A stretch of 64,000 bases of DNA from Candidatus Poribacteria bacterium (GTDB lineage: Bacteria; Poribacteria; WGA-4E; WGA-3G), in the NCBI GenBank assembly GCA_965237835.1, contig OZ250160.1, forward strand, positions 1,225,439 to 1,289,438, read 5' to 3'. Below, in pieces: positions 3,326-52,070 of the stretch. The notes below the pieces were generated by a model. The model ran no database searches, had not been told where the DNA came from, and worked only from the letters and a program-made list of their open reading frames with translations. The position numbers were made by a program, and so were the translations under genes. Numbering within the stretch: position 1 is the first letter of the stretch; each line of letters starts with the position of its first letter.

Positions 3326-3949
3326 ATGGCACTATTTGGTAGAAAAGATGGAAAATCTCTTTTTGGAAACCAGAAAGAGGCAGATGGCAAGAAACCGGAA
3401 CGGCATGAGTTGGTTGACATCCCGATTAATAGCATAATTGAACTCTCTGACATCACTACATATCAGGATACAGGTGATACCTCACATGCCTTTACGCTTT
3501 CCACGCGAAAGAAGTACGATGGCGACGGTCTCCTTCGATATATGTATCACGTCCAAGACGTTGAGGGTGAGCTTGTGGTCGGGGTTGATCACATTGCTGG
3601 AACAAAGGATGAGTACGAAATCTCGCGATGGATTGTTGATGGTGAACAGGAACTTGGGGATCCGTTGCCAGACGAAATGACGTTCTATTATCCGGACCCT
3701 GATAGTGAGGATGAAGAAATCGCCATTGTATACAACCGGCAAGAGATTGTCTCAGCAAAACTCACCGTTACCGATGCGCAAAGACAAGAGGAATTTGCGG
3801 CTGAACTCCATGAATACATCAGTGATAACGAAAAATTGATGTCTATTGAACTCTGCGGTGACTGGCTTACCTTTTACGTTGGTTCACTCATATCCCGTTC
3901 CGACATTGAAATTTATCCTGCAGTTGTAACTGGACAGGTACGTAGTTAA
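3326..3949 (+). CDS. hypothetical protein
   Basis: ORF 3239..3949; probable start MALFGRK at 3326; acidic, no repeats; overlaps stop of upstream gene suggesting coupling. Confidence 0.5.
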   Translation: MALFGRKDGKSLFGNQKEADGKKPERHELVDIPINSIIELSDITTYQDTGDTSHAFTLSTRKKYDGDGLLRYMYHVQDVEGELVVGVDHIAGTKDEYEISRWIVDGEQELGDPLPDEMTFYYPDPDSEDEEIAIVYNRQEIVSAKLTVTDAQRQEEFAAELHEYISDNEKLMSIELCGDWLTFYVGSLISRSDIEIYPAVVTGQVRS

Positions 3950-4160
3950 CCTGAGTTCGATAAAGGATTCAAAGGTAAACGTAGGTTGGGTTGAACGAAT
4001 GTGAAACCATAGGTCAATTTAAGAAAGCACTATACATGCCCGTGCGTGGTAGGTCCGGTTTCCTAACCGAACCCACCGTGCCTGGAGGACCACTAATTGA
4101 CGCATAAGGGTTGAACGGATGTGAAACGTGAAACCCATAGGCGTCAATTTAACGTGTGGA
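3950..4160. repeat. composite repeat: family-H terminus (taacctgagttcgata) plus family-A hairpin element (GGTCCGGTTTCCTAACCGAACC) flanked by gcgtcaatttaa motifs
   Basis: Motifs recur at 11341, 30411, 47481, 48791. Confidence 0.6.
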
Positions 4161-4196
4161 ACACGGATATTTAGATATTTAGTGTTAATTGGGATT

Positions 4197-4290
4197 TATA
4201 CCCAATTAACCCGATTTGTAGCGCGAGGTCTCTGGGTCCTCCTCGCAATGCCGACTTTATCCGAAAACGTCGAATCAAGTTAATTTGCTA
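4197..4290. repeat. family-B MITE-like element
   Basis: TIR cccaattaac...gttaatttgctat, internal hairpin gcgcgaggtctctgggtcctcctcgc; 7 full copies in window. Confidence 0.7.
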
Positions 4291-5070
4291 TTACATCTAC
4301 AGTTGTATGTTTTCAATCTTCAAAGATGCCAAAATCACTCATTAATTATATGTTCCTCTGACCGCTCCCCGCCCTGAAGGGCGAGGGTTCTTTTGAAGGA
4401 ACCCCCGCACGGGTTTCTCAAGGGTTACCGCTACTTGCATATCAAGTCCAGCAGGTATGGGGCCATCTTGCATCTCCTTTTAGGAGGCTTCCCGACTCAA
4501 GTTCGGGCAACACGTGGACAAACACGCGGAGCGGGCCATCTGGCTCACTACGGAAACACCTTAAACCTTATCAGGTGTGACCGATACTTTGACCGCTAAG
4601 TGCGGTTTCAAAACTAACGTTATTAGGAGAGTATCCTATCTTTCAAGGTTTTGGCTCCGTTGAAACGTCTTTTTTCTGTAGTGGATGCGTTTTCTACGTC
4701 TACGCTGCTCTTTACAAAAGAGTGGTTAGGATCAATGGCAAGGTTGCCAAAGTTGTCCATCCTAACCCGTAGATGTTAGAATTATATCACATTTTTTGGC
4801 GAAAGTCAAGTTTTTTTCAACAATGGAGGTCTTGGTTTCCGCTACTACATCCCCGCCTTAAAAGGCGAGGTTTTGTAGCGGAAGATTTGATAAAAAACTT
4901 GTTAAAAAGTTAAAAAAGGCTTGACATACATACTAACATTATAGTACACTATTAATAAACTAGAAATAACTCTGTATTTGACGTTTCTCTAAACAACGTT
5001 ATAGACACGTTTTAACTCATAGTTCGCAACCTTGTTTTGAGCGGACTGTGGTTGACAGGAGGTTTACTTC

Positions 5071-6558: not shown

Positions 6559-6573
6559 AGTCGAGTTTTATAC

Positions 6574-6610
6574 AAATCACCGCAGAGATTAATTATCTTT
6601 GCGGTGATTT
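6574..6610 (+). terminator. putative hairpin terminator after 5071..6558
   Basis: aaatcaccgcagagat-taat-atctttgcggtgattt, 14-bp stem 16 nt after stop; weak T-run. Confidence 0.4.
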
Positions 6611-6627
6611 AATGCCTAAACAATACG

Positions 6628-6695
6628 AATACCCTTTAACCTGATTGTAGTGTGAGGTCTCTGGGTTCTCTTCGCAATGCTAACTTTATCACTCT
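6628..6695. repeat. truncated family-B element
   Basis: tgtagtgtgaggtctctgggttctcttcgcaatgctaactttatc matches family-B core; cut off by element at 6705. Confidence 0.5.
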
Positions 6696-6704
6696 TCCCG
6701 CCAA

Positions 6705-7125
6705 GACCCCCTGCTTTAGCTTGTGGGATTCAGGCGGGCAAATAATAGACAGATAAACAAAATGTGCCAGGGTATCACAAACTGCCCAGCGAAAGACAAA
6801 GGTGTAATACCACATCGCAATAACCCTTCAAAGTCGGTGGATAGCGTCCATATCAAGCCAGCGCAGCAATGCGGACTGGAATGCGTGAGCGGAGGCAATC
6901 CCTCCCGAAGTCTACGGACTTGTCGCGTGGCGTGCCTGGTAGAAAGGGCAGCTGTAAAATGGGTGGAACCAGAGCCAACCCACGACACTGCGGAAAACAA
7001 ATCAAACGGGCTGGCTTAGCAGCCCTAAGTGGAGCGGACGGAAGACGTAGCTCAGATCGGCAGTCTGTGAGGAAACACAAGCCCCAACCTTTAGGTTGTG
7101 GGTGCTATGACCACAAGCCATCTAA
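6705..7125 (+). mobile_element. IS200/IS605-family derivative lacking tnpB (left and right subterminal hairpins retained)
   Basis: Left hairpin ccccctgctttagcttgtggg resembles LE motif at 24380/36170/45800; 3' 80 bp (tctgtgaggaaacacaagccccaacctttaggttgtgggtgctatgaccacaag) is near-identical to sequence just downstream of tnpB stop at 12101-12165; short overlapping ORFs here are not credible genes. Confidence 0.6.
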
Positions 7126-12100: not shown

Positions 12101-13440
12101 CTTGGTCATAGCACCCACCACCTAAAGGCGGGGGCTTGTGCTTCACAGACAACAACAATCCCGAAGGATTGACTTATATCGTCTCCACGTGGGGTTCTAA
12201 GCAGCCCCTAAGTATGTTTATAGCAGCATTGATGTCTCTGTCGTGGTGGGAGCCACATTTTGGACATGTCCACTGTCTATCTCTAAGAGAAAGATTATCG
12301 TTATGATACCCGCAATCGGAACAAGGTTTCGTTGTCGCAGTCCACTGTCCAACTTGATGGAACTCACGATTATGTTTGAAACATTTGAACTTCAATATCT
12401 CAACAAACTGATAGAAGGCAAGGTCAGAGACTTTACGTCCCCAAAGCCTTTTCATACCGTCAAGGTTCAGCGTTTCGGTTGCGATGAAGTCAAACCTTCG
12501 GCAAAGGTCGGTGGCAAGTTTCCAATGCCAGTCTCTACGTTGGTTGCTGACTTTGCTATAGAGTATAGCGAGTGCTCTGACAGCACGCCCCCAGTTGCCA
12601 GAACCTCTAACTTTACGACTAACATTTTTGTTAAGGGTTCTCAACTTGTTCAAAGATTGTTTCGAGAATTGTGGGCTCTGTATCTTTTCACCAGTGCTAA
12701 GCGTCAAAAAGGTTTTCAATCCAAAGTCTATCCCTACGCTCTTACCCGTAGCAGACAAGACTTCTTTGCTTGTGTCATCAGTGATAATATAGACCCAGTA
12801 TTCTCCTGCAGCGTCTCGGAGGATTTGGACATAGCGGACATTACCTTGACAGTCGCGGTGCTGATGGAAAGAATACCAGATACGGTCAAACTTCAAAGAT
12901 TGTGTTTTATCATTCCACGTTTTGAAAGAGATACGGAGACGCCCATTCTCAAGTCTGTATCCTGTTGGAAATTTAGCAGAGCGCATCTTGTGTGGTTTTT
13001 TCAATTTAGGCAAACCAACCTTTTTGCCACCATTCTTTTTATAGACAAAAAAACGTTGGTAAGCAGTGTCAAGACGGATGATAACAGCGTCAAGTGTGTC
13101 TCTTGGTATCCAAGCCCAGTGTTTTTTAGTCCGGTTGAGCAACTTCGTCAAATGCGGTTGCAGACGATACCTGCCAGCATATTTACCATAAATGCGGAAG
13201 TACCGTTGCTCAAGACGCAGGAAGTGATTATGCACGGCTGCCAAATCGTCAAGCATATTACCCAAACGTTTGTTTTTACCATGATTGCGTATCTTGTGTT
13301 TGTAGGTGCGCATCGCTTATATCCTTCACATTGCTTTCCGATACTATTCGGTTGGTAGGGACTATCTCAAGCGAGATAGATAGTATTCCCTACCAGCAAT
13401 GCTAAATATAGCATAACATAGATTGGCATTATTTGTCAAC
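12101..13440 (-). mobile_element. IS605-family (IS1341-like, tnpB-only) insertion sequence
   Basis: Intact tnpB, downstream right-end hairpin ccccgcctttaggtggtggg, upstream left-end hairpin cccctacctgaaggcagggg; splits the COG1373 ATPase gene. Confidence 0.75.
12174..13313 (-). CDS. tnpB: IS605 OrfB-family transposase-associated RNA-guided nuclease
   Basis: 379 aa; RuvC-like motifs and C-terminal zinc finger CSDCGYHNDNLSLRDRQWTCPKCGSHHDRDINAAINI; 371-aa antisense ORF is a shadow. Confidence 0.9.
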   Translation of the reverse strand: MRTYKHKIRNHGKNKRLGNMLDDLAAVHNHFLRLEQRYFRIYGKYAGRYRLQPHLTKLLNRTKKHWAWIPRDTLDAVIIRLDTAYQRFFVYKKNGGKKVGLPKLKKPHKMRSAKFPTGYRLENGRLRISFKTWNDKTQSLKFDRIWYSFHQHRDCQGNVRYVQILRDAAGEYWVYIITDDTSKEVLSATGKSVGIDFGLKTFLTLSTGEKIQSPQFSKQSLNKLRTLNKNVSRKVRGSGNWGRAVRALAILYSKVSNQRRDWHWKLATDLCRRFDFIATETLNLDGMKRLWGRKVSDLAFYQFVEILKFKCFKHNREFHQVGQWTATTKPCSDCGYHNDNLSLRDRQWTCPKCGSHHDRDINAAINILRGCLEPHVETI

Positions 13441-18279: not shown

Positions 18280-18610
18280 GATAAACAGATTCAACAGGGT
18301 TATTTAGTTTTAGGCTTTTTGTCCATTTTAGACGAAAAGTCGCGATTCGGAGATCGCTCCTACAGCGGAAAGTCTTAGATTGAAAACCTAAATATTCGGA
18401 GAACTAAATAGCCCTGCAGATTCAATGACTACTGCTTTGTCCACCTAATTTTTGTGGTTTGTAGGTCGGGTAGAGCGTCCGCGAAACCCTCTGCTCTACC
18501 CGACCTACAATATTTTGGTGGACATAGCACTACTGTCCGTTGGGTAGAACGGAATCCACAATAAAATCCGACACAAAAAAGTGATTCATCCTCCATTTAA
18601 GATGTTTTAG
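18280..18610. repeat. nested repeats: family-H element (ttaacgtgagttcgata terminus) containing a family-C element (18297..18414)
   Basis: 18541-18610 is reverse complement of 52470-52540; family-C core gtcgcgattcggagatcgctcctacagcggaaag. Confidence 0.75.
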
Positions 18611-21506: not shown

Positions 21507-21704
21507 CTACTGCCCTCCCCGCTGGATATAGTTTTCGACGAATTCCTCTGAATTTTCTTCTAAAATCTCATCGATTTCATCAAGAAGTGCATCTAAATCC
21601 TCAGTCAAATCGTCGACGTTTTCATTGAGTTCGGGATTGGGTTGGATCTCCTCATTTTCATTGGTGGGATGATCTCGGTATTCTTGCTGTTTTTCGCGTG
21701 GCAT
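21507..21704 (-). CDS. pup: prokaryotic ubiquitin-like protein Pup
   Basis: 65 aa, acidic, ...DLTEDLDALLDEIDEILEENSEEFVENYIQRGGQ; C-terminal GGQ as in Pup. Confidence 0.85.
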   Translation of the reverse strand: MPREKQQEYRDHPTNENEEIQPNPELNENVDDLTEDLDALLDEIDEILEENSEEFVENYIQRGGQ

Positions 21705-21796: not shown

Positions 21797-23284
21797 TTAT
21801 TTGCAGTTTGCTCGGATTTGGTTGACGAGTTCAACGACGGTACAAGAGTTCAGCAGTTCACCGATAATGGCTTGCGTGCCAAAGTGTGGACGGTCCATCA
21901 TAATCTTATCATAGCCGGTTGGACCGTTGAAAACGATTGAATTCCAGCTTACACTGTGAATGTCATTCGGAAATTTTCGTAAACATGTTCCTCGAAAATA
22001 TGCGCGCGTATCTAAAGGTGGATGTTGAATTGCATGGACTATTTCCTCCTGAGTTAAGATACGTTCAATATGTCCATTCTTGAGTAATCGTGCATAAAGT
22101 CCTTTATCTGGACGTAGGTCATGATACTGAAGGTCAAGCATACGAACGCGTGGGTCAGTCCATTTGAAATCGTGTCGCGCAATATAAGCATCAATAAGCT
22201 TTTTCTTAATAATCCAATCTAAATGCTGTCCTAAACTCATCGGGTCAGTTTTTAACCCATTTAGGACAAAATCCCATTTCTCCAAAACATCTTCAACTAT
22301 AGGTGTGCGTTCCTCATCCGTGAGATGTTTATGTGCCAGTTCAAGATATGCTTGCTGAATTTCTATAGCTGACCATTTACGATCATCTTTAAGTTCAATC
22401 TTGTTCTTGCATGACAAATCACGCGAAACAGATTTTACCATCGCAACAGGATCTTGTAAAGCGAATTGCTTACCGACAACACCTTTCTCAATTAATTGCA
22501 GGACGATAGACGTAATACCAACTTTCAGATAGATAGAGAATTCGGACAAGTTTGAATCGCCTACGATAACATGCAACCGACGATAAAACTTTGAATCTGC
22601 GTGCGGTTCGTCTCGAGTGTTGATCAAAGGACGTTCAACCATTGTGCTCAGACCGACCTCTTTTTCAAAGAAATCTGCGCGTTGTGAAATCTGATATTCG
22701 GTTTCGTCCGCTCCGTTTTCTACCCCCACCTTCCCACTTCCGGTAATTATCTGACGTGTAACGAGGAAAGGCGTGAACCCATCAACTATATCCGAAAACG
22801 GAATTTTACGTGACATCAAGTAATTTTCATGTGAACCGTAACTATGTCCTTTGTAGTCAGTATTGTTTTTATAGATAATTATCTCTTGATTATCCAATAG
22901 CAGTTGTTCGGCAGCAAGACGACTCAAATCTAAAATGAGTTCTCCAGCTTTTTCGTATTTGACCAAGTCGCGAGCATTTGAACATTCAGGTGTGCAATAT
23001 TCAGGGTGTGCGTGATCAACATAATATCTACCACCGTTCACCAAAATATCGTTTATTACACTGTTGTTCCCATCTTCTACTGGCGGGTTTTCGCCTTCCG
23101 CTATAAATCCACGTGCGTCTATCAATGGACTTTCTTGCGCGTAATCCCACGAAATTGTTGGAATGTTACGGCTTTTGTACGCGTTTACAACTAAGGTTGA
23201 AGCCGCTATAGGGTCTTGCTCTCGCGCATTTTTGACAGAGATGCCGAACTCAGTTTCGGTGCCTATAATTGTTGGTACTGCCAT
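21797..23284 (-). CDS. dop: Pup deamidase/depupylase
   Basis: 495 aa; GTETEFG, Dop-specific insertion (SWDYAQESPLIDARGF), YVDHAHPEYCTPEC, NTRDEPHAD. Confidence 0.9.
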   Translation of the reverse strand: MAVPTIIGTETEFGISVKNAREQDPIAASTLVVNAYKSRNIPTISWDYAQESPLIDARGFIAEGENPPVEDGNNSVINDILVNGGRYYVDHAHPEYCTPECSNARDLVKYEKAGELILDLSRLAAEQLLLDNQEIIIYKNNTDYKGHSYGSHENYLMSRKIPFSDIVDGFTPFLVTRQIITGSGKVGVENGADETEYQISQRADFFEKEVGLSTMVERPLINTRDEPHADSKFYRRLHVIVGDSNLSEFSIYLKVGITSIVLQLIEKGVVGKQFALQDPVAMVKSVSRDLSCKNKIELKDDRKWSAIEIQQAYLELAHKHLTDEERTPIVEDVLEKWDFVLNGLKTDPMSLGQHLDWIIKKKLIDAYIARHDFKWTDPRVRMLDLQYHDLRPDKGLYARLLKNGHIERILTQEEIVHAIQHPPLDTRAYFRGTCLRKFPNDIHSVSWNSIVFNGPTGYDKIMMDRPHFGTQAIIGELLNSCTVVELVNQIRANCK

Positions 23285-24410
23285 TAGTGATACTCACGAC
23301 GGAAACCAAAGCCGTGTGCTTCTTTTAGCACACAACCATCCTCTGTGATTCCTGCTTCCGTCTCTCGTGCCTCAAACAGAGGTCTTACTTGGACTCCACA
23401 GGCGTTTATACTCTCTGTCTATCCGACAGCAAGGTGTTTTAGGTTTATTGCAGCGTTGACATCTCTATCTATTTGATAGTCGCATTGACTGCAATGATAA
23501 GTTCTCTCTGATAGCGTCAAGTCATCTTTTTTGTGTCTACAACTACTACAAGTTTTGCTTGATGCATAGAATTGCGGTGCTTCTAATACAGGTATTCCGA
23601 AAGCATCTGCTTTCGTTTTTAGCTTATTTAGAAACCCGCCTAACGCTGAATCTGATAACGCCTTTGCTAACTTTCTATTCTTTAGCATGTTTGTCACCTT
23701 GAGTGTTTCTATGCTGATAGCACCTGCACGACGGATAATATCGGTAGTTGCTTTGTGGTGCACATCGTTTCTGATACAAGCGATACGATAGTGGATACGT
23801 TCTACCTTGTGTTTTTGTTTAGACCAGTTATTTGATCTAAACACTTTACGGCTCAACTTTCGTTGATCTCGTTTGAGTTTTCTCTCATAGCGTTTTAGGG
23901 GTCTTGGATTATCATACTTAGTCCCATCACTCAAGGTTGCCATTGTTGTTAAGAGTTCACCACGATTGGAAGTTGTCTTGATCTAAACCTGCCTTGAAAT
24001 CTGACAACGCTTGATTATATGCAAATCTCGCATAGCCACATTGTTGTGAAAACCAGCGTCTTTGCTTAAAAGTGGGATCTAAAGTTATTTTGTGTGTTTT
24101 GTATGGCATATCTGACTCCCATAGGTTTCTGACTCCCTCGTCAAAGGTGTGGTAGGTGTTGACGCACCCACCACTGAGTCAGTCTTATAATTATACCACA
24201 AAATACATGTAAATGTCAAGCGTTTTTTGACCCACAACCAGGGTTATTTAGTTTTAGACTTTTTGTCCATTTTAGACGAAAAGTCGCGATTCGGAGATCG
24301 CTCCTACAGGGGAAAGTCTTAGATTGAAAATCTAAATATTCGGAGAACTAAATAGCCCTGGACCCACAACTAAAGCAGTGGGATTGTCAGCTAATTCCCT
24401 TCACTTTCGG
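23285..24410 (-). mobile_element. degenerate IS605-family element filling the arc-dop spacer, with a nested family-C MITE (24241..24358)
   Basis: Right-end module (taaacgcctgtggagtcc...gtgtgctaaaagaagcacac hairpin) abuts dop start codon; left-end hairpin (cactgctttagttgtgggtc) abuts arc stop codon. Confidence 0.65.
23419..24115 (-). pseudogene. tnpB: tnpB with internal deletion (N-terminal 57 codons then stop; C-terminal 174-codon ORF)
   Basis: C-terminal ORF has RuvC-II/III and zinc finger (CSSCRHKKDDLTLSERTYHCSQCDYQIDRDVNAAIN); reverse complement of 24000-24115 encodes MPYKTHKITLDPTFKQRRWFSQQCGYARFAYNQALSDF... then stop. Confidence 0.7.
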
Positions 24411-24432
24411 AATCAAGTGGAATCATCAAACG

Positions 24433-26238
24433 TTAGAGATATGTCCCGCCTGTGCTCACTCGCACATCAGGACGTGCCTGTGGTTCATTGATTAAGGCTC
24501 GAATGTTGACAATTTTCTCACCTTTCCTGCCAGATATTTTTGCCCAATCATCTGGATTAGTTGTATTTGGAAGGTCTTCATTTTCATGGTACTCTTCCCG
24601 AATAGCAGTCTTCAGATCATGCAGAGAAATTCCTTTTTCTTTCCCTTCTGAACTGATTAGACGTTTAATCGCTATTTTCTTTGCCCGTGAAACAATGTTT
24701 TGAATCATCGCACCGCTAACGAAATCTTTGAAAAAGAGAGTCTCGCGTTCGCCGCGGGTGTATGTTACTTCAATAAACCTATTCTCATCTGTGGTCGCGT
24801 ACATTTCGTCTACAGCCGCAGATATGAGGTATTCTGAAACGTCATCAGTATTTCCATCAAACTTTTCTATTTCTTTTTTCGCAAACGGAAGATCCGGCGT
24901 TAAATAGATACCAAAAATATCCTTAGCACCGTCAATATTCGGACGGTCAATCTTGATTTTGATGTCAAGTCTTCCCGGTCTCAAAACAGCGGGATCCAGA
25001 AGGTCCTGTCGATTACTTGCGCCGATAACAATAACATCACGTAAATTTTCTACGCCATCAATTTCTGCGAGAAACTGTGGTACCAGTGTAGACTCCATGT
25101 CTGATGAGATACCTATGCCGCGTGATCGGAACAGTGAGTCCATTTCGTCGAAGAAGATAACTACTGGGAAACCCTCTTTTGATTTTTCACGTGCTTTTAG
25201 GAACACCTCTCGTATCTTTCGTTCAGTTTCACCGACATACTTATTGAGAATTTCTGGTCCCTTAATATTTATAAAATACCCTCTAATATCATCTCTATCG
25301 GTCTGTTGACGAATACGTTCTGCGAGGCAATTGGCAACCGCTCGCGCAATTAATGTTTTTCCACAGCCTGGCGGTCCATACAGGAGTACACCTTTTGGCG
25401 GCATAAGATCAAATTCGCGGTACTCATCTGGATAAAGATAAGGCATTTCAATGGCGTCTCGAATCGCCTCTATCTGTGTATCCAAACCACCGATGTCAGC
25501 ATAACTAATATCTGGAACTTCTTCGAGCAGTAGGTCATCAAGTTCGCGTTTTGGAAGTTTTTCAAGTAGCATACCGCTGGTATGATTCAATAAGACGCTG
25601 TCGCCGGTCTTCAAAGTTTCGTTTTTCAACGCTGCAGAAACGCGCACGACTTGTTCTTCATCTGTTCTGAGGTTGACAATAGCGCGGTCAGATTCAAGTA
25701 CCTCTTTTATCTTAACAACATCACCGTGTTTCTCAGGCTGTTTGATTGCGATGACATTTAAGCCACTATTCACGATGACTTCTTGTCCTACTTGTATTTG
25801 ATCGGCTTTTATGGCAGGATCAAGATTCACACGCCATTTTTTTCCGCTGATATCTACATCAATAGTGTTGTCATCGTTCGCACTAAGGAAGATGCCGTAG
25901 TTGTTTGGAGGGGCACTGAGTTGCTTAACCTTCTCTTTTAGGAGTTCAAGTTTCTCTTTTGCTTCTTGAAGGGTACTTGTGATTTTTCGGTTGCGTCTGT
26001 GCGCCTGCATAAGTTCGCGCGTCATTTCATAGAGACGTGCGTCTACATCTTCATCAGGAGCTGCTCTGAGTTGTCTTCTCAGGTCACCGACTTCGTTCTC
26101 AAGCATCTCTATCTGCCAATTTAACTCACGTATTAACTGTGGATAGTCAACCGAATCTGATTTGATCCCTTCAATATCGGGACCTTTCAATATATCAGAT
26201 GAAGTCTCTATTTTGCTTGCCATACAAGAATTTCTCAC
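24433..26238 (-). CDS. arc: proteasome-associated AAA ATPase (ARC/Mpa)
   Basis: 601 aa; N-terminal coiled coil, AAA+ GPPGCGKT; C-terminal ...GGTYL resembles GQYL docking motif. Confidence 0.9.
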   Translation of the reverse strand: MRNSCMASKIETSSDILKGPDIEGIKSDSVDYPQLIRELNWQIEMLENEVGDLRRQLRAAPDEDVDARLYEMTRELMQAHRRNRKITSTLQEAKEKLELLKEKVKQLSAPPNNYGIFLSANDDNTIDVDISGKKWRVNLDPAIKADQIQVGQEVIVNSGLNVIAIKQPEKHGDVVKIKEVLESDRAIVNLRTDEEQVVRVSAALKNETLKTGDSVLLNHTSGMLLEKLPKRELDDLLLEEVPDISYADIGGLDTQIEAIRDAIEMPYLYPDEYREFDLMPPKGVLLYGPPGCGKTLIARAVANCLAERIRQQTDRDDIRGYFINIKGPEILNKYVGETERKIREVFLKAREKSKEGFPVVIFFDEMDSLFRSRGIGISSDMESTLVPQFLAEIDGVENLRDVIVIGASNRQDLLDPAVLRPGRLDIKIKIDRPNIDGAKDIFGIYLTPDLPFAKKEIEKFDGNTDDVSEYLISAAVDEMYATTDENRFIEVTYTRGERETLFFKDFVSGAMIQNIVSRAKKIAIKRLISSEGKEKGISLHDLKTAIREEYHENEDLPNTTNPDDWAKISGRKGEKIVNIRALINEPQARPDVRVSTGGTYL

Positions 26239-35159: not shown

Positions 35160-35312
35160 TAATTCTAACGTGAGTTTGATATATAGCAAATTCTAAACAT
35201 AAACGGACATTTTCATAGGGGTTAGGTAACCTAACCCCTACGGGCGAGAAGACCTCGCCCCTACGAGAAGCCCGACATCTTGTTTTATCAAACTCACGTT
35301 AATTCTAAACAG
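35160..35312. repeat. family-H MITE-like element
   Basis: TIRs ttaattctaacgtgagtttgata / tatcaaactcacgttaattctaa; internal hairpins ggggttaggtaacctaacccc and gggcgagaagacctcgccc. Confidence 0.8.
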
Positions 35313-35798
35313 ATGAGGGCTGCTCTTGTACCACAGGAATAACATAACTTCGAATCGTAAAACCATCTAATGTCTCAGTTTCTACACGATGTTCGGGGAC
35401 TGTGCGGTGATCAAATACGACGTAGTATCCTTCTGTAGCACCTTCAGATTTGAGATAGGCAGCAAGTTGTCTTTTACCAACTTGATAGCGGTGGTTACTT
35501 TCCCAAATCTTGGTTTCAATGATGTATTTTTGCGCGTTGTGAAGGATAAGCAGGTCTATCCTGCCGCGCCCGGTTTGGACTTCAAGGTACATTGCACCTT
35601 GTACGATTCGAACGAACTGATCCAGATATGTATAGAGGAGATATTGTCCTACGAACTCTTTTGGCGTATCTGGCACATGTAAGATTTTGAAACCAGCCCG
35701 TGCAATAAAAGCCTGAAAGTTATCAAGCAGCGTTGCCATTTCAATTTTTCCATCGGTTGTAAGGTAATCAATGAAATCTGTATCTTGACATCTCCCAC
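35305..35798 (-). pseudogene. C-terminal PD-(D/E)XK nuclease-like domain of a split AAA-ATPase-like protein
   Basis: 144-aa ORF is open upstream to the IS-derivative boundary (...DTDFIDYLTTDGKIEMATLLDNFQ...); such domains normally follow the AAA-ATPase-like domain in one polypeptide. Confidence 0.6.
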
Positions 35799-36200
35799 AC
35801 CTAAAGGAGTGGGATTCTTAGGTCTTATATCAGTCCTTAATGTTTCTGAATGCCTTGTTCCTGCTTCTGCATCCACTGCTCCGTAGTTGAGTCTAACACG
35901 GACTCCACAGGCGTTTAGACTCTCCCAGTGTCCCCAGGCGAGTTATTAGTGAATGTGGTAGGGATGTTGTCCTAACAACATATATTAGTTTTTCTCTACC
36001 ACATTCTAATGTTTTGAGTGATTTCGCACCAGCACCACACACCTTATCACGGATGGGGACAGGACTCAACACAGGTAAGTGTTGAGGTGATAACCCTGTC
36101 CAACGATGCTACATATAGTATATGCTATTTCGGTGCAAATGTCAAGCGTTTTTTGACCCACAGCTAAAGCAGTGGGATTGTTAGTTAATTCCCTTCATTT
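35795..36200 (-). mobile_element. tnpB-less IS605-family derivative inserted into the AAA-ATPase-like/PD-(D/E)XK gene
   Basis: Hairpins cccactcctttaggtgtggg and cccactgctttagctgtggg at the ends; gactccacaggcgtttagactc right-end module; ~85% identical to inverted copy 45790..46075. Confidence 0.7.
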
Positions 36201-37318
36201 TCGGGAAAATAGTGCCCTTCGATCCCGTTAATAAGAGGCAGGAAAGCTTGTATGATGCACTGCTGATAAATCGGGTTCACAATCTCACACATGCCGTCTG
36301 TCCCTTTTGTAATCACACCGTAAGTTGTGAGTTGATTAATAATATCATTTTGTCGGTTATACTGCACGCCTCTCTCATAAGAAACGATTTTCATGAGTAG
36401 GTTTTCAAAACGAGGGTCTCTTCGGATATTGGTAAGCAGATGTCTGATGTTGACATTATCTTCCTCAAGTAGGACAGAAAGTCCGGTAGAAAAGTTTGAC
36501 ATCGTTATTGTTTCAGTTTTGGGAATGGCTAACTCTTCAGTAAGGATTTGCGCGAATCGATTGACGAGGAACGGTTGCCCAGCAGTTTGTTTATGGAGTG
36601 CTTCAACAACTTCAGGCGAGAAGTCTTGTCCAGTTTCATCTGTATACTGTGTGAACAACTCTTGCACCTGTTGGCGGGTGAAGTTGGGCAAGTAAAACTC
36701 GTCCTGGATATTGAATGGAGAAACGGACCTATCATAGTTAAGTTGCGTGATGCTCTTGACCCCGACGATACCGACACTATGAGGGCAGCGCATCTCATCG
36801 GAAAGGTAAATGTCGCGTAGCGCATGAAGAAAATCACTTAAAACAGTCTGTGGAATGCCATCAAACTCGTCTATAATGACGACAACCTTCTGATTACCAA
36901 GATCATTATTCAAAATGCTTGAGAACTGTTCAAAGAACTCCATCATTGAAAGGTGATTTGTGATCTGCACGTTTTCAAGAAATTGTGTAAGTGTGTCAGA
37001 AGGAGTATCTCCCCGCTTTTGGAGTACTTGCTCAATCTCCTTACGTATCCTTTTGCAAAGAGCCTCGTAAAAATCGGAAGAGGAGAGGTTTTTATAAGTT
37101 TCAAAATTGAGTTGAATTGGAAAATAGATTGACGATTCGGTTACAAGTGTGTCAACTGCCATTCTGAAAAAGGTCGTCTTGCCAGTTTGACGTGGCGCAA
37201 AGAGAACGATGTACCGCCCTTCTTTGACGCGTATGAGAAAATCGTCAATCTCCTTGCTACGAGGTACAACATAATGTTGTCCTGGATACACACGACCTTG
37301 GGTTCCAAAACGTCTCAT
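36185..37318 (-). CDS. AAA-ATPase-like domain protein (N-terminal part of split gene; last 7 codons are IS-derived)
   Basis: 377 aa; P-loop FAPRQTGKTT; C-terminal ...FPENEGN encoded by gggaattaac repeat end. Confidence 0.7.
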   Translation of the reverse strand: MRRFGTQGRVYPGQHYVVPRSKEIDDFLIRVKEGRYIVLFAPRQTGKTTFFRMAVDTLVTESSIYFPIQLNFETYKNLSSSDFYEALCKRIRKEIEQVLQKRGDTPSDTLTQFLENVQITNHLSMMEFFEQFSSILNNDLGNQKVVVIIDEFDGIPQTVLSDFLHALRDIYLSDEMRCPHSVGIVGVKSITQLNYDRSVSPFNIQDEFYLPNFTRQQVQELFTQYTDETGQDFSPEVVEALHKQTAGQPFLVNRFAQILTEELAIPKTETITMSNFSTGLSVLLEEDNVNIRHLLTNIRRDPRFENLLMKIVSYERGVQYNRQNDIINQLTTYGVITKGTDGMCEIVNPIYQQCIIQAFLPLINGIEGHYFPENEGN

Positions 37319-37404
37319 TTTTTCACCATTTTCGATATTAATTCTTAACGGTTTATTGTATCACATCATTGCTTGAAAGTCTATAGAAAATTAAGGTAGT
37401 AGCA

Positions 37405-37523
37405 GGGTTATTTAGTTTTAGGCTTTTTGTCCATTTTAGACGAAAAGTCGCGATTCGGAGATCGCTCCTACAGCGGAAAGTCTTAGATTGAAAACCTAAA
37501 TATTCGGAGAACTAAATAGCCCT
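37405..37523. repeat. family-C MITE-like element
   Basis: Near-identical to 18297..18414 and 24241..24358. Confidence 0.85.
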
Positions 37524-37555
37524 GAAGATAGTAGTCGCACTCCGCGTGCCGTAAT

Positions 37556-45770: not shown

Positions 45771-45789
45771 GAGGAAAATATGAAGGGAA

Positions 45790-46075
45790 TTATCTGACAA
45801 TCCCACTGCTTTAGCCGTGGGTCAAAAAACTTATGACATTTGCACCAAAACATGTTAGACTATATGTCCCATCGTGGATAGGGTTTCCACCCCGGACAAC
45901 CTGTATGGGTCCTATCCCTCACCTGTGGAAAGGTGTGTGATGCTGTGCGAAATCACTTAAAACATTAGAATGTGGTAGAGAAAAACTAATGTCCGTTGTT
46001 ACTACAACGACCCTACCACATTCGCTAACAACCTACCGTGGGATACACGGAAAGTTACGCCTGTGGAGTACAAAT
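45790..46075 (+). mobile_element. tnpB-less IS605-family derivative (inverted copy of 35880..36200)
   Basis: caatcccactgctttagccgtgggtc hairpin, cgcctgtggagtac right-end module; family-B element inserted at its right end. Confidence 0.65.
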
Positions 46076-46077
46076 AA

Positions 46078-46168
46078 GACCCAATTAACCCAATTCGTAG
46101 CGTGAGGTCCCCGTGCCTCACAATGCTTGACTTTATCAGAAAACTTCAAATCAAGTTAATTTGGTATA
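46078..46168. repeat. family-B MITE-like element
   Basis: cccaattaacccaattcgtagcgtgaggtccccgtgcctcacaatgc...caagttaatttggtataat. Confidence 0.8.
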
Positions 46169-46186
46169 ATAGCAAAACTGAAATGT

Positions 46187-46378
46187 GTGAAACGGTCTTC
46201 AATCAACAAAGGAAAGCAAAACGATATTGAGAAGGATATGGAGTTAGTTATTTTTGTTTCATCTATTGTAATTTCGGCTATTCTCATCATGATACGTGGA
46301 GAACTCAAGGATATTGGTGAAAGTCTACACGAGATTGGGAAACATCTTGACCGAATTAATAGGAAAGATGGAAGTTGA
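46187..46378 (+). CDS. small hypothetical membrane protein
   Basis: 63 aa, one TM helix; weak. Confidence 0.3.
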   Translation: MKRSSINKGKQNDIEKDMELVIFVSSIVISAILIMIRGELKDIGESLHEIGKHLDRINRKDGS

Positions 46379-46512
46379 CAAACAGACAGAATCGAGCGGT
46401 GAAACTACGCAGTCGATCTCTCTGCCCGATCCTCTGTTAGGACAGTTGGCTCACAGTATTCCTTAACCTGCACATCTGAAATTTGCGGTTGGGTAGAACG
46501 CAGCTAAACCAA

Positions 46513-47364
46513 ATGGCACAAAATTACGATAATATGGCAAAAAATCTGTTAACAGATTATGCCACCGAAATCTCACAGTTTGTACTCGGTGTGAAAGATG
46601 TTAAAGTCCTTGAAAATCTTGACACTGAACAACAGACTATTATAGGACAACACACTGATAGCACAAAACGTGTCCGTGTCAATAACCACGAAGTTATTTT
46701 GCACATAGAGCTGCAACTCCGCGATAGCACGCGCAAACCGATGTGGGCACGAAACGCAGCGTATCACGGATACCTCGTCGGTGAACATCAGATGCCTGTC
46801 TACTCCAACGTCATCTATTTCCATCCAAATGCTGGAAGGAATGACACCGGAATATACGAATATAGTTGGCGCGGTTACAAATACACCTTGCACTACAAAG
46901 TGATACGACTTATTGAGATAGACGGTCAATCGGTTTTGGAAATGCAGGCACCAGGCATGCTGCCATTTACGCCTCTCATGAAACCGCCTACGGGGATGAA
47001 CGCTGAACAGTGGGTGCAACAATGTGTTGATGCGACAACTGCCGCCTCTGTCGATCAGCGAACACATGCAGATTTACTTTATGCTATTTATCTCTTCGGA
47101 TGCATAGCACACGATCCTGAACTTTTTAAACGAATTATACCGGAGGAAATTATGCGAGAATCTAAGGCTTTTCAACTTATCTTAAGAGAGACTACCATCA
47201 AACATATCTTGGCATTATTGCAGGTGAAATTCCAGGCAGAAGCAGTGAGTGCGCTAACACCAGCACTTGAAAACATTGACGATTTACAACGTCTTGAACA
47301 GTTGCTTCTTGATGCAGCGCAGGTAGAAAGCCTTGAAGCCTTCACACAAATGCTACAGGAGTAG
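46513..47364 (+). CDS. Rpn-family (YhgA-like) PD-(D/E)XK recombination-promoting nuclease/putative transposase with DUF4351-like C-terminus
   Basis: N-terminal PD-(D/E)XK region; C-terminal LQRLEQLLLDAAQVESLEAFTQMLQE resembles DUF4351. Confidence 0.65.
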   Translation: MAQNYDNMAKNLLTDYATEISQFVLGVKDVKVLENLDTEQQTIIGQHTDSTKRVRVNNHEVILHIELQLRDSTRKPMWARNAAYHGYLVGEHQMPVYSNVIYFHPNAGRNDTGIYEYSWRGYKYTLHYKVIRLIEIDGQSVLEMQAPGMLPFTPLMKPPTGMNAEQWVQQCVDATTAASVDQRTHADLLYAIYLFGCIAHDPELFKRIIPEEIMRESKAFQLILRETTIKHILALLQVKFQAEAVSALTPALENIDDLQRLEQLLLDAAQVESLEAFTQMLQE

Positions 47365-47433
47365 ATTGAACGGTAGCAACAGAATAGACATCTACTTGTA
47401 AGCGCACTGTTAATAGTGTCCAAGAATTATAGT

Positions 47434-47724
47434 TTATGAAGTTTAAGTATTTAATTCGGTAAAGCCGGTTTTCCCCAGGGCCGGTAGGTGCGGTTTCCTA
47501 ACCGCACCATAAGCGTCAATTTAGTGATCCTCCAGGTCCGGTAGGTGCGGTTAGGAAACCGCCCCGTTTCGTTTTCGCAACTGATTATCGGACGCATATT
47601 CCATAAGTTCCGGTGTGGTTACAAACCGCACCTACCGGGTTGGGGACCGCTAAATTGACGCATAAGGGGCGGTTTCCTAACCGCACCGATAGATTGGAAT
47701 CCCGTTAATTTGGTATAAGACCTC
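47434..47724. repeat. family-A MITE-like element with two GGTGCGGTTTCCTAACCGCACC-type hairpins
   Basis: Same termini as 11300 and 48762 elements; ends cccgttaatttggtata. Confidence 0.8.
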
Positions 47725-47830
47725 ATTCGGAGGCACGAGAGACGGAAGCAGGAATCACATAGGAGAGTTGTGTGCAAAAGAAGCACACGGCTTTAGCCGT
47801 CGTGAGTATCACACGTACTCTGCTTATTCA
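47722..47830 (+). repeat. solo IS605 right-end (omega-RNA-scaffold-like) module
   Basis: ggcacgagagacggaagcaggaatcaca.agga...gttgtgtgcaaaagaagcacacggcttt...cgtcgtgagtatcac ~85% identical to reverse complement of 23286-23385 (upstream of dop); supplies the first ~22 codons of ORF 47772. Confidence 0.65.
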
Positions 47831-51524: not shown

Positions 51525-51539
51525 AACAATTCTCCAATA

Positions 51540-52070
51540 GTATTAACCTATACATTTCCGAACAGTGTTAGACATTGTTCTTCTTGCATAGTTTGCAAGT
51601 TGCTTATAGAAAGCAACCAGGGTTTATCTACCAAAGCACGTAGAAAGATTCCACGTGCGCCATTGAGGTCTCTGTCCATCGTCATACCGAAGTTGTCTTT
51701 GATGATTTTCTGATGATTTTCTTTCCACCGAGTGTCCTGATTATCTCACCCATCCATGAAATTGTTTTTGATGTATAGGCTTCTGAAACATCAATCACGA
51801 TAACCCCTGCTTCTTTTGCTTTATGCTTTAGAAACGCTTTAAATCTAAAGTGTGAAAGCGTCAGCATCTGCCTAATAGTTTTTTATGTAGTTTCCGTGAA
51901 CCCCGGTGGGTCATCTGTGATGTCTCAAAAGTTGTATCTATGCTGACCTCCTTCAGTCCGTATAAAATCGATCTTACCCGCATTTGCCAAACGCCTTAGA
52001 TGATCAGGCGTCCAGTCAAGTATCTCACTTGTTTTCTTTGCTGAAATATAGGGCATAGTCAGATTGTACC
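51540..52070 (-). pseudogene. degraded IS607-like remnant: tnpA MerR-type HTH fragment plus tnpB fragments
   Basis: Reverse-strand MPYISAKKTSEILDWTPDHLRRLANAGKIDFIRTEGGQHRY then stop; downstream frame ...VIVIDVSEAYTSKT (TnpB RuvC-II motif); multiple stops. Confidence 0.5.

Follow-up and report, generated by a model that had tools for sequence, protein, structure and literature searches.

A probable decaying tnpB-only IS200/IS605-family element between arc and dop in a Candidatus Poribacteria Pup-proteasome operon

The arc-dop junction and the ends of its insert

Candidatus Poribacteria are sponge symbionts. The window analysed here is a 64,000-nt stretch of one of their genomes (contig OZ250160.1; G+C 42.5%), and its minus strand carries a Pup-proteasome operon whose genes, recognised with Pfam, run in the order arc/mpa, dop, pup (21704..21507), prcB and prcA. 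The upstream gene, arc/mpa (24433..26238, minus strand), encodes the proteasomal AAA ATPase (Pfam AAA, Prot_ATP_ID_OB_N and Prot_ATP_ID_OB_C) and has a 99% identical orthologue in the sister genome L002. It is followed by dop (21797..23284, minus strand), encoding the Pup deamidase/depupylase, which matches Pfam Pup_ligase at 562 bits and begins ATG-GCA-GTA-CCA, an N-terminus kept in relatives. Between the arc stop codon (24435-24433) and the dop ATG (23284) lie 1148 nt.

Comparison of 80 Poribacteria dop loci, the closest to that of the window and all from this candidate phylum, shows that the ancestral arc-dop spacer usually measures 17–110 nt and ends '...GAAAGTGAA-TA-ATG'. Relatives lacking the insertion thus have short empty sites in the syntenic spacer, the comparison that the first-pass annotation of this DNA had called for. 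At three such sites (L010, L011 and L015) the leader '...gaaagTGAAtaATG' (..gaaagtgaa|taATG) precedes the conserved ATG-(G/A)CA-GTA-CCA; the occupied site in the window reads '...ccgaaagTGAA', then the element, then 'taATGgcagtacca'. By match to these three loci, 24432-24400 (minus strand) is 33 nt of leftover ancestral spacer that closes with TGAA (24403-24400), the insertion target and a putative TAM, with the insertion point 3′ of TGAA and two bases ahead of the dop ATG. The whole element, nested MITE included, spans 24399..23287 (minus strand, 1113 bp), as delimited by the empty sites and by the end of homology with other copies. It had been said to fill the spacer exactly; in fact old spacer survives on both flanks, 33 nt next to arc and 2 nt next to dop.

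Further copies of the element were taken from the Poribacteria contigs L082/L104, L105 and L106. Five independent copies share a left end that begins GGGAATTA and is always preceded by TGAA, with different sequence further upstream. At the right end, homology stops at the terminus GAGTATCAC (23287..23295, minus strand) in four copies: that at dop, one ending at 47812 of the window, L105 3316 and L106 3492. These ends are not chance matches, because the left end recurs in the window at 36134-36204 and 45781-45841 and the right end at 47716-47812, and both are found in other Poribacteria contigs as well. Subterminal imperfect palindromes are present on both sides and terminal inverted repeats are absent. 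The left-end subterminal hairpin, CCCAC-tgctttagtt-GTGGG (CCCAC-N10-GTGGG; 24382-24363, minus strand), is kept in five copies, the others being those at 36134-36204 and 45781-45841, L082/L104 and L105. It had been noticed before and was thought to touch the arc stop, but the element itself starts only at 24399, 33 nt away. TGAA stands at all five left-end junctions and no repeat flanks the element, which indicates insertion without target duplication. In ISDra2 and IS608 the insertion target doubles as the TAM, and by analogy TGAA is likely the TAM of this element's TnpB.

The second copy in the window (35787..36193, minus strand) is a 407-bp non-autonomous derivative of the same family, identified by its shared left end and again preceded by TGAA (36197-36194). 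The stop of an AAA_35 ATPase ORF (36185..37318) falls inside its left end and a PD-(D/E)XK_9 ORF (35305..35739) comes next; this insertion probably split one gene. A third copy (45785..47812, plus strand) has the same left end, a right end 88% identical to that at dop, and an internal insert of ~1.6 kb at TAAGACC (46078/47719) that holds a 293-aa ORF unmatched in Pfam and, at about 47460-47700, clustered palindromic repeats. The right end of this copy overlaps the called GTG start (47772) of the next gene. Copies 2 and 3 have in common a strongly structured non-coding stretch of ~230 nt (35900-36120, minus strand; 45850-46060, plus strand), located between the left-end promoter and the omega-RNA-like part, with compensatory changes in its stems (GGACAGG/CCTGTCC versus GGATAGG/CCTATCC). 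Searching this stretch against Rfam returned only a chance-level hit to mir-633 (E = 0.94; 18 bits, where the gathering score is 90).

Remains of tnpB, the nested MITE and the sister genome

Two fragments of tnpB lie inside the element in different frames. The N-terminal stub (24109..23957, minus strand; Pfam HTH_OrfB_IS605, E = 6.5e-9) runs for 50 codons from the ATG at 24109, not 57 as first counted, and ends in a stop (23959-23957). The C-terminal fragment (23943..23419, minus strand) is an ORF of 174 codons that matches OrfB_IS605, over profile positions 29-119 of 120, and Cas12f1-like_TNB. Together the fragments match PF12323, PF01385 and PF07282, and ISDra2 TnpB is matched in the PDB, a full-length relative giving E = 2e-52 against structures 8bf8/8exa. 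Aligned with the solved structure, the 174-aa fragment corresponds to ISDra2 TnpB residues 199-372. It retains counterparts of E278 (IETL) and D361 (IDRDVN) along with all four cysteines of the zinc finger, so that RuvC-II, RuvC-III and the zinc finger are present; missing are D191 (RuvC-I) and all residues N-terminal of it, including WED and REC. The description of an IS605-family element with an internally deleted tnpB, and of a 174-codon ORF keeping RuvC-II/III and the zinc finger without RuvC-I, is borne out by these Pfam matches and the residue alignment.

Two full-length relatives, L021 1776..2966 (396 aa) and L083 644..1888, set the loss at ~140 codons plus a frame shift; the deletion removes reference residues about 47-186, GIDVG included. 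A functional nuclease can be set aside, as there is neither a complete RuvC D-E-D triad nor WED/REC, and the 50-aa HTH stub is in another frame. Judged from its sequence, tnpB at dop is a pseudogene, left by the ~140-codon loss of WED/REC and RuvC-I and by the frame shift. The insert as a whole is very probably a decaying tnpB-only IS200/IS605-family element, an ordinary mobile-element remnant.

The sister genome L002 (OZ244616.1; Dop 98% and Arc 99% identical) carries the element at the same junctions, without the MITE and with a larger, in-frame tnpB deletion that removes codons 1-105 of the 174-aa ORF; in the next relatives, whose Dop is 90% identical or less, the site is empty. It follows that the insertion is older than the split of the window genome and L002, that the MITE was added afterwards, and that the 174-aa ORF has not been conserved. 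We therefore place the insertion, into a short arc-dop spacer, in the common ancestor of these two genomes.

One could still suppose that the 174-aa fragment works as a small protein in its own right, such as a nuclease-dead factor that binds RNA or DNA and acts together with the neighbouring RNA, given that its ORF is intact with an ATG and retains E278, D361 and the zinc finger. This is hardly credible: the fragment has neither WED nor REC, the domains by which omega RNA and heteroduplex are held in the structures of ISDra2, no ribosome-binding motif of Shine-Dalgarno type precedes the ATG, and L002 has deleted codons 1-105. The earlier suggestion that the truncated TnpB could still be expressed loses its footing for the same last two reasons, the absence of conservation being what its author had named as telling against it.

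A search of metagenomes with the 174-aa fragment found only two close loci, one of them truncated. The best 120 homologues of the fragment (P0001-P0120) are all 140–300 aa long, with none of full length among the matches listed. We did not adopt a reading of these lengths as a genuine 'mini-TnpB' family; the listing omitted the window's own protein. One homologue, P0111, is an in-frame fusion of the HTH and C-terminal parts without RuvC-I, much like the copy in the window. Elsewhere in the window, 12174-13313 (minus strand) encodes an apparently intact 379-aa TnpB of another family, ~30% identical to that of the element at dop, with OrfB_IS605, a zinc ribbon and the motifs GIDFG, ETLNL and HDRD.

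The MITE nested in the left end covers 122 bp at 24239-24360 (previously given as 24241-24358), has 16-nt terminal inverted repeats (CAGGG...) and no ORF, and is flanked by a 10-bp target duplication, GTTGTGGGTC, at 24370-24361 and 24238-24229. Its identity as a MITE rests on the inverted repeats, the 9–10 bp duplications at three copies and the existence of multiple copies; the two others, 97% identical, are at 18295-18416 and 37403-37524, each with its own 9-bp target duplication. The ends and the duplication length recall the ISAs1 superfamily, to which we presume it belongs. As the orthologous element in L002 is free of it, the comparison places its arrival in the left end after the split of the two genomes, in the window lineage only.

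The sharing with L002 and the MITE both bear on whether the element might still be mobilisable, a Y1 TnpA encoded elsewhere excising it precisely and restoring TGAA-TA-ATG, which would make the insertion a switch that can be reversed, as opposed to a permanent scar. IS200/IS605 excision is seamless, as in IS608 and ISDra2. The left-end hairpin and TGAA junction at dop are intact, the right end matches that of L105, and copies 2 and 3, short elements with both ends in the same window, imply past mobilisation in trans. We nevertheless regard this as unlikely, for the insertion is stably common to two diverged genomes, the MITE parts the left-end hairpin from the remaining left end, and an unsystematic inspection of the window and of the loci examined showed no tnpA.

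The right end and the expression of dop

The right-end module (23287..23440, minus strand) is a conserved, structured, omega-RNA-like segment that reaches the element terminus. A module had been recognised here and put at ~100 bp; from the tnpB stop (23421-23419) to 23287 it measures 132 bp. An alignment of seven copies, drawn from two subfamilies, covers the stretch between the tnpB 3′ end and the terminus, with shared blocks that include ACGCCTGTGGAGTCC and GGCACGAGAGACGGAAGCAGGAA. RNAalifold predicts 39 pairs for this seven-sequence alignment, nine of them with compensatory changes, and the single-sequence fold has a z-score of −2.5. Rfam gave no RNA family at the element, either in an E-value scan of 22800-24900 or in a gathering-threshold scan of the whole window. 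The predicted fold has the structure expected of an omega-RNA scaffold.

The module contains a large stem-loop (23310..23337, minus strand), found by folding and by a terminator-pattern scan, with the core GTGTGC-taaaagaa-GCACAC at 23333-23314 and then TTGGTTTCC. This core was previously taken for the right-end hairpin itself, ~20 nt from the dop ATG; the hairpin exists, but the distance is 29 nt, the element runs on to its terminus, and the stem is a large one of RNA type. The covarying terminal hairpin is a smaller one, ACGG(C)...(G)CCGT, which at dop reads ACGG-ctttggttt-CCGT (23299..23315, minus strand), in copy 3 ACGGC-ttta-GCCGT and in L106, with a compensatory change, ACGAC-ttta-GTCGT. 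The sister subfamily (L021, L083 and copy 2) has a right-end hairpin that looks like its left-end one, and the small hairpin at dop is similar to that right-end hairpin.

The flank in which a guide would lie is indeed, as first proposed, the dop translation start. The would-be guide consists of TA (23286-23285) followed by ATGGCAGTACC..., the first codons of dop, and reads into the gene because the dop start is the DNA flanking the element. Its match in the window genome is preceded by TATCAC and not by TGAA; since the element separates TGAA from the guide match, there is no self-target in the current genome. In the homing model for TnpB the target appears on precise excision, and by analogy a target for this guide would arise only then.

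The same insertion displaced the purine-rich leader GAAAGTGAA 1.1 kb upstream of dop. In the 30 nt before the dop ATG the sole purine patch is GTGAG at −13 to −9, while pup, prcB and prcA have strong AGGAG-type motifs, and translation of dop would now have to start from a leader in which the final 1.1 kb comes from the element. The frame after the tnpB TAG (23284-23421, minus strand) stays open for 44 codons and ends at a TAA overlapping the dop ATG (TAATG). TnpB of the sister subfamily (L021, L083) reads through the corresponding stretch. Translational coupling of tnpB to dop, which would need read-through of the TAG or an internal GTG start, was rejected as unsupported.

Dop was almost certainly co-transcribed with arc ancestrally, to judge from the shortest spacer among relatives, just 17 nt (L024). 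Between the window and L002 there are 20 synonymous and 8 non-synonymous codon changes in dop (33 and 6 in arc), so purifying selection on dop persisted with the element in front, and dop must therefore be transcribed across it. The gene would also still be needed, on the grounds of this selection and of the Pup C-terminus, GGQ: in the Mycobacterium pathway a GGQ-ending Pup must be deamidated by Dop before ligation.

The dop transcript may come from the arc promoter, with read-through of the operon, or from the tnpB promoter that the element itself carries ~900 nt upstream. The latter is TTGACA-18-TATAAT with an upstream TG (24219-24190, minus strand; 12/12 sigma-70 match), facing tnpB and dop; it is the sole perfect match in 5.2 kb scanned and is kept in the left ends of L104 and L105. 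The first-pass annotation had held that both promoter and 5′ UTR of dop must be IS-derived, and had pointed to 23285-23420 for promoter prediction. The proximal leader is indeed element-derived, but no promoter-like site was found on the dop strand of that interval at a 9-of-12 threshold, and with spacers down to 17 nt in relatives, read-through from arc is possible; an IS-derived promoter is thus possible and not required. The terminator-like stem with its T-rich tail just before the ATG (11 pairs, then TTGGTTTCC; 23337-23301) would oppose read-through; its tail is weak, and six sites of this pattern were found where 4.2 are expected in shuffles.

The remnant has diverged little from that of L002, at 7/592 nt (1.2%), compared with 7.3% for 4-fold degenerate sites in six genes of the operon (Fisher p = 1e-8). 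On sequence grounds this runs against a freely decaying pseudogene and would count against our main reading. The 4-fold sites of the adjoining arc 3′ and dop 5′ parts are also low, at 3.4% (0/58 in the dop 5′ part; p = 0.04), and such a local low-divergence tract would explain most of the difference between remnant and operon. The valley of low divergence from L002 extends over 22840-25640, in contrast to 12.5% in recA and 9.3% in prcB, which suggests a recombination tract. Selection on the remnant as a sign of function was not accepted, the contrast nearly vanishing against the immediately adjoining coding sequence.

These observations allow the right end to be considered as a co-opted regulatory leader of dop, an attenuator or processing site that uncouples dop expression from arc, possibly because a TnpB acting in trans binds or processes it. 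The terminator-like stem, the structured and conserved right-end RNA, the divergence below that of operon 4-fold sites and the retention of the insertion in two genomes while dop remains constrained would all suit it. Yet every one of these features comes with the element family: L105, at an unrelated locus, shares this right end down to its TTTGGTTTCC variant, and therefore nothing is specific to the dop site. The T-tract is weak and the low divergence continues into neighbouring coding sequence. We consider such co-option very unlikely. Highly improbable, too, is its fuller form, in which the right end is a working leader that sets the arc:dop ratio and a same-family TnpB in trans may cut the read-through transcript to an omega RNA with the first 16–20 nt of dop as guide.

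Relation to known systems and to other insertions

Read as a decaying mobile-element remnant, the insert compares well with ISDra2/IS608-type elements. It carries a TnpB homologue, has subterminal hairpins in place of terminal inverted repeats, and went in 3′ of a short fixed target that was not duplicated; a structured non-coding segment overlaps its tnpB 3′ end and continues as far as the right end. It differs in having no tnpA (an IS1341-like, tnpB-only arrangement), in its broken tnpB, and in its target, apparently TGAA, where ISDra2 uses TTGAT and IS608 TTAC. PATEs and other non-autonomous IS200/IS605 derivatives likewise keep both ends and lose coding capacity, as the 407-bp relative in the same window does; unlike them, the copy at dop, in which two pieces of tnpB can still be recognised and a MITE is nested, is partway through its decay and not a compact PATE.

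TldR proteins, nuclease-dead TnpB-like repressors, offer a further parallel: a TnpB relative without a complete RuvC triad beside the start of a host gene. TldR, however, keeps the full RNA-binding N-terminal half and targets a promoter through a TAM-adjacent guide match, whereas at dop that half is gone, the ORF is not kept in L002 and the guide match is not beside TGAA, so that the element does not qualify as a TldR-like repressor. With promoter-supplying IS elements it shares an internal consensus promoter aimed at an adjacent co-oriented host gene. In this case, though, it is an inward tnpB promoter 0.9 kb away and not an outward end promoter, and its use for dop is presumed.

Other insertions have been found in and around the same operon. 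Full-length TnpB of the same family (396 aa) lies between recA and arc in another Poribacteria genome (L021 1776-2966), and therefore the operon's other upstream junction has also been used by this element family. The arc-dop spacers of further relatives hold inserts at about 3900-5000 of each locus: MITE-like palindromic insertions in L003 and L005; 2.2 kb with a 430-aa methyltransferase-like ORF and a 229-aa ORF in L007; a 307-aa ORF in L027 and L029; and in L032 an independent IS605-family TnpB, truncated too. In L002, ~400 extra nt stand between dop and pup (6573-6975), the last 130 nt of which are 82% identical to 51532-51661 of the window and look like the end of a different TnpB element found in L104. 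A literature search combining Poribacteria with TnpB or proteasome found nothing relevant.

What sets the element apart is solely where it lies, separating the leader of a still-functional dop from its start codon, and knowledge of how TnpB elements work is unchanged by it. It provides a clean natural case of an IS200/IS605 insertion between a ribosome-binding region and a start codon that was tolerated long enough to decay in place. For a TnpB family common in Poribacteria it yields defined ends and a candidate TAM, TGAA, and it adds to the picture of the arc-dop junction of the Poribacteria Pup-proteasome operon as a repeated landing site for mobile DNA.
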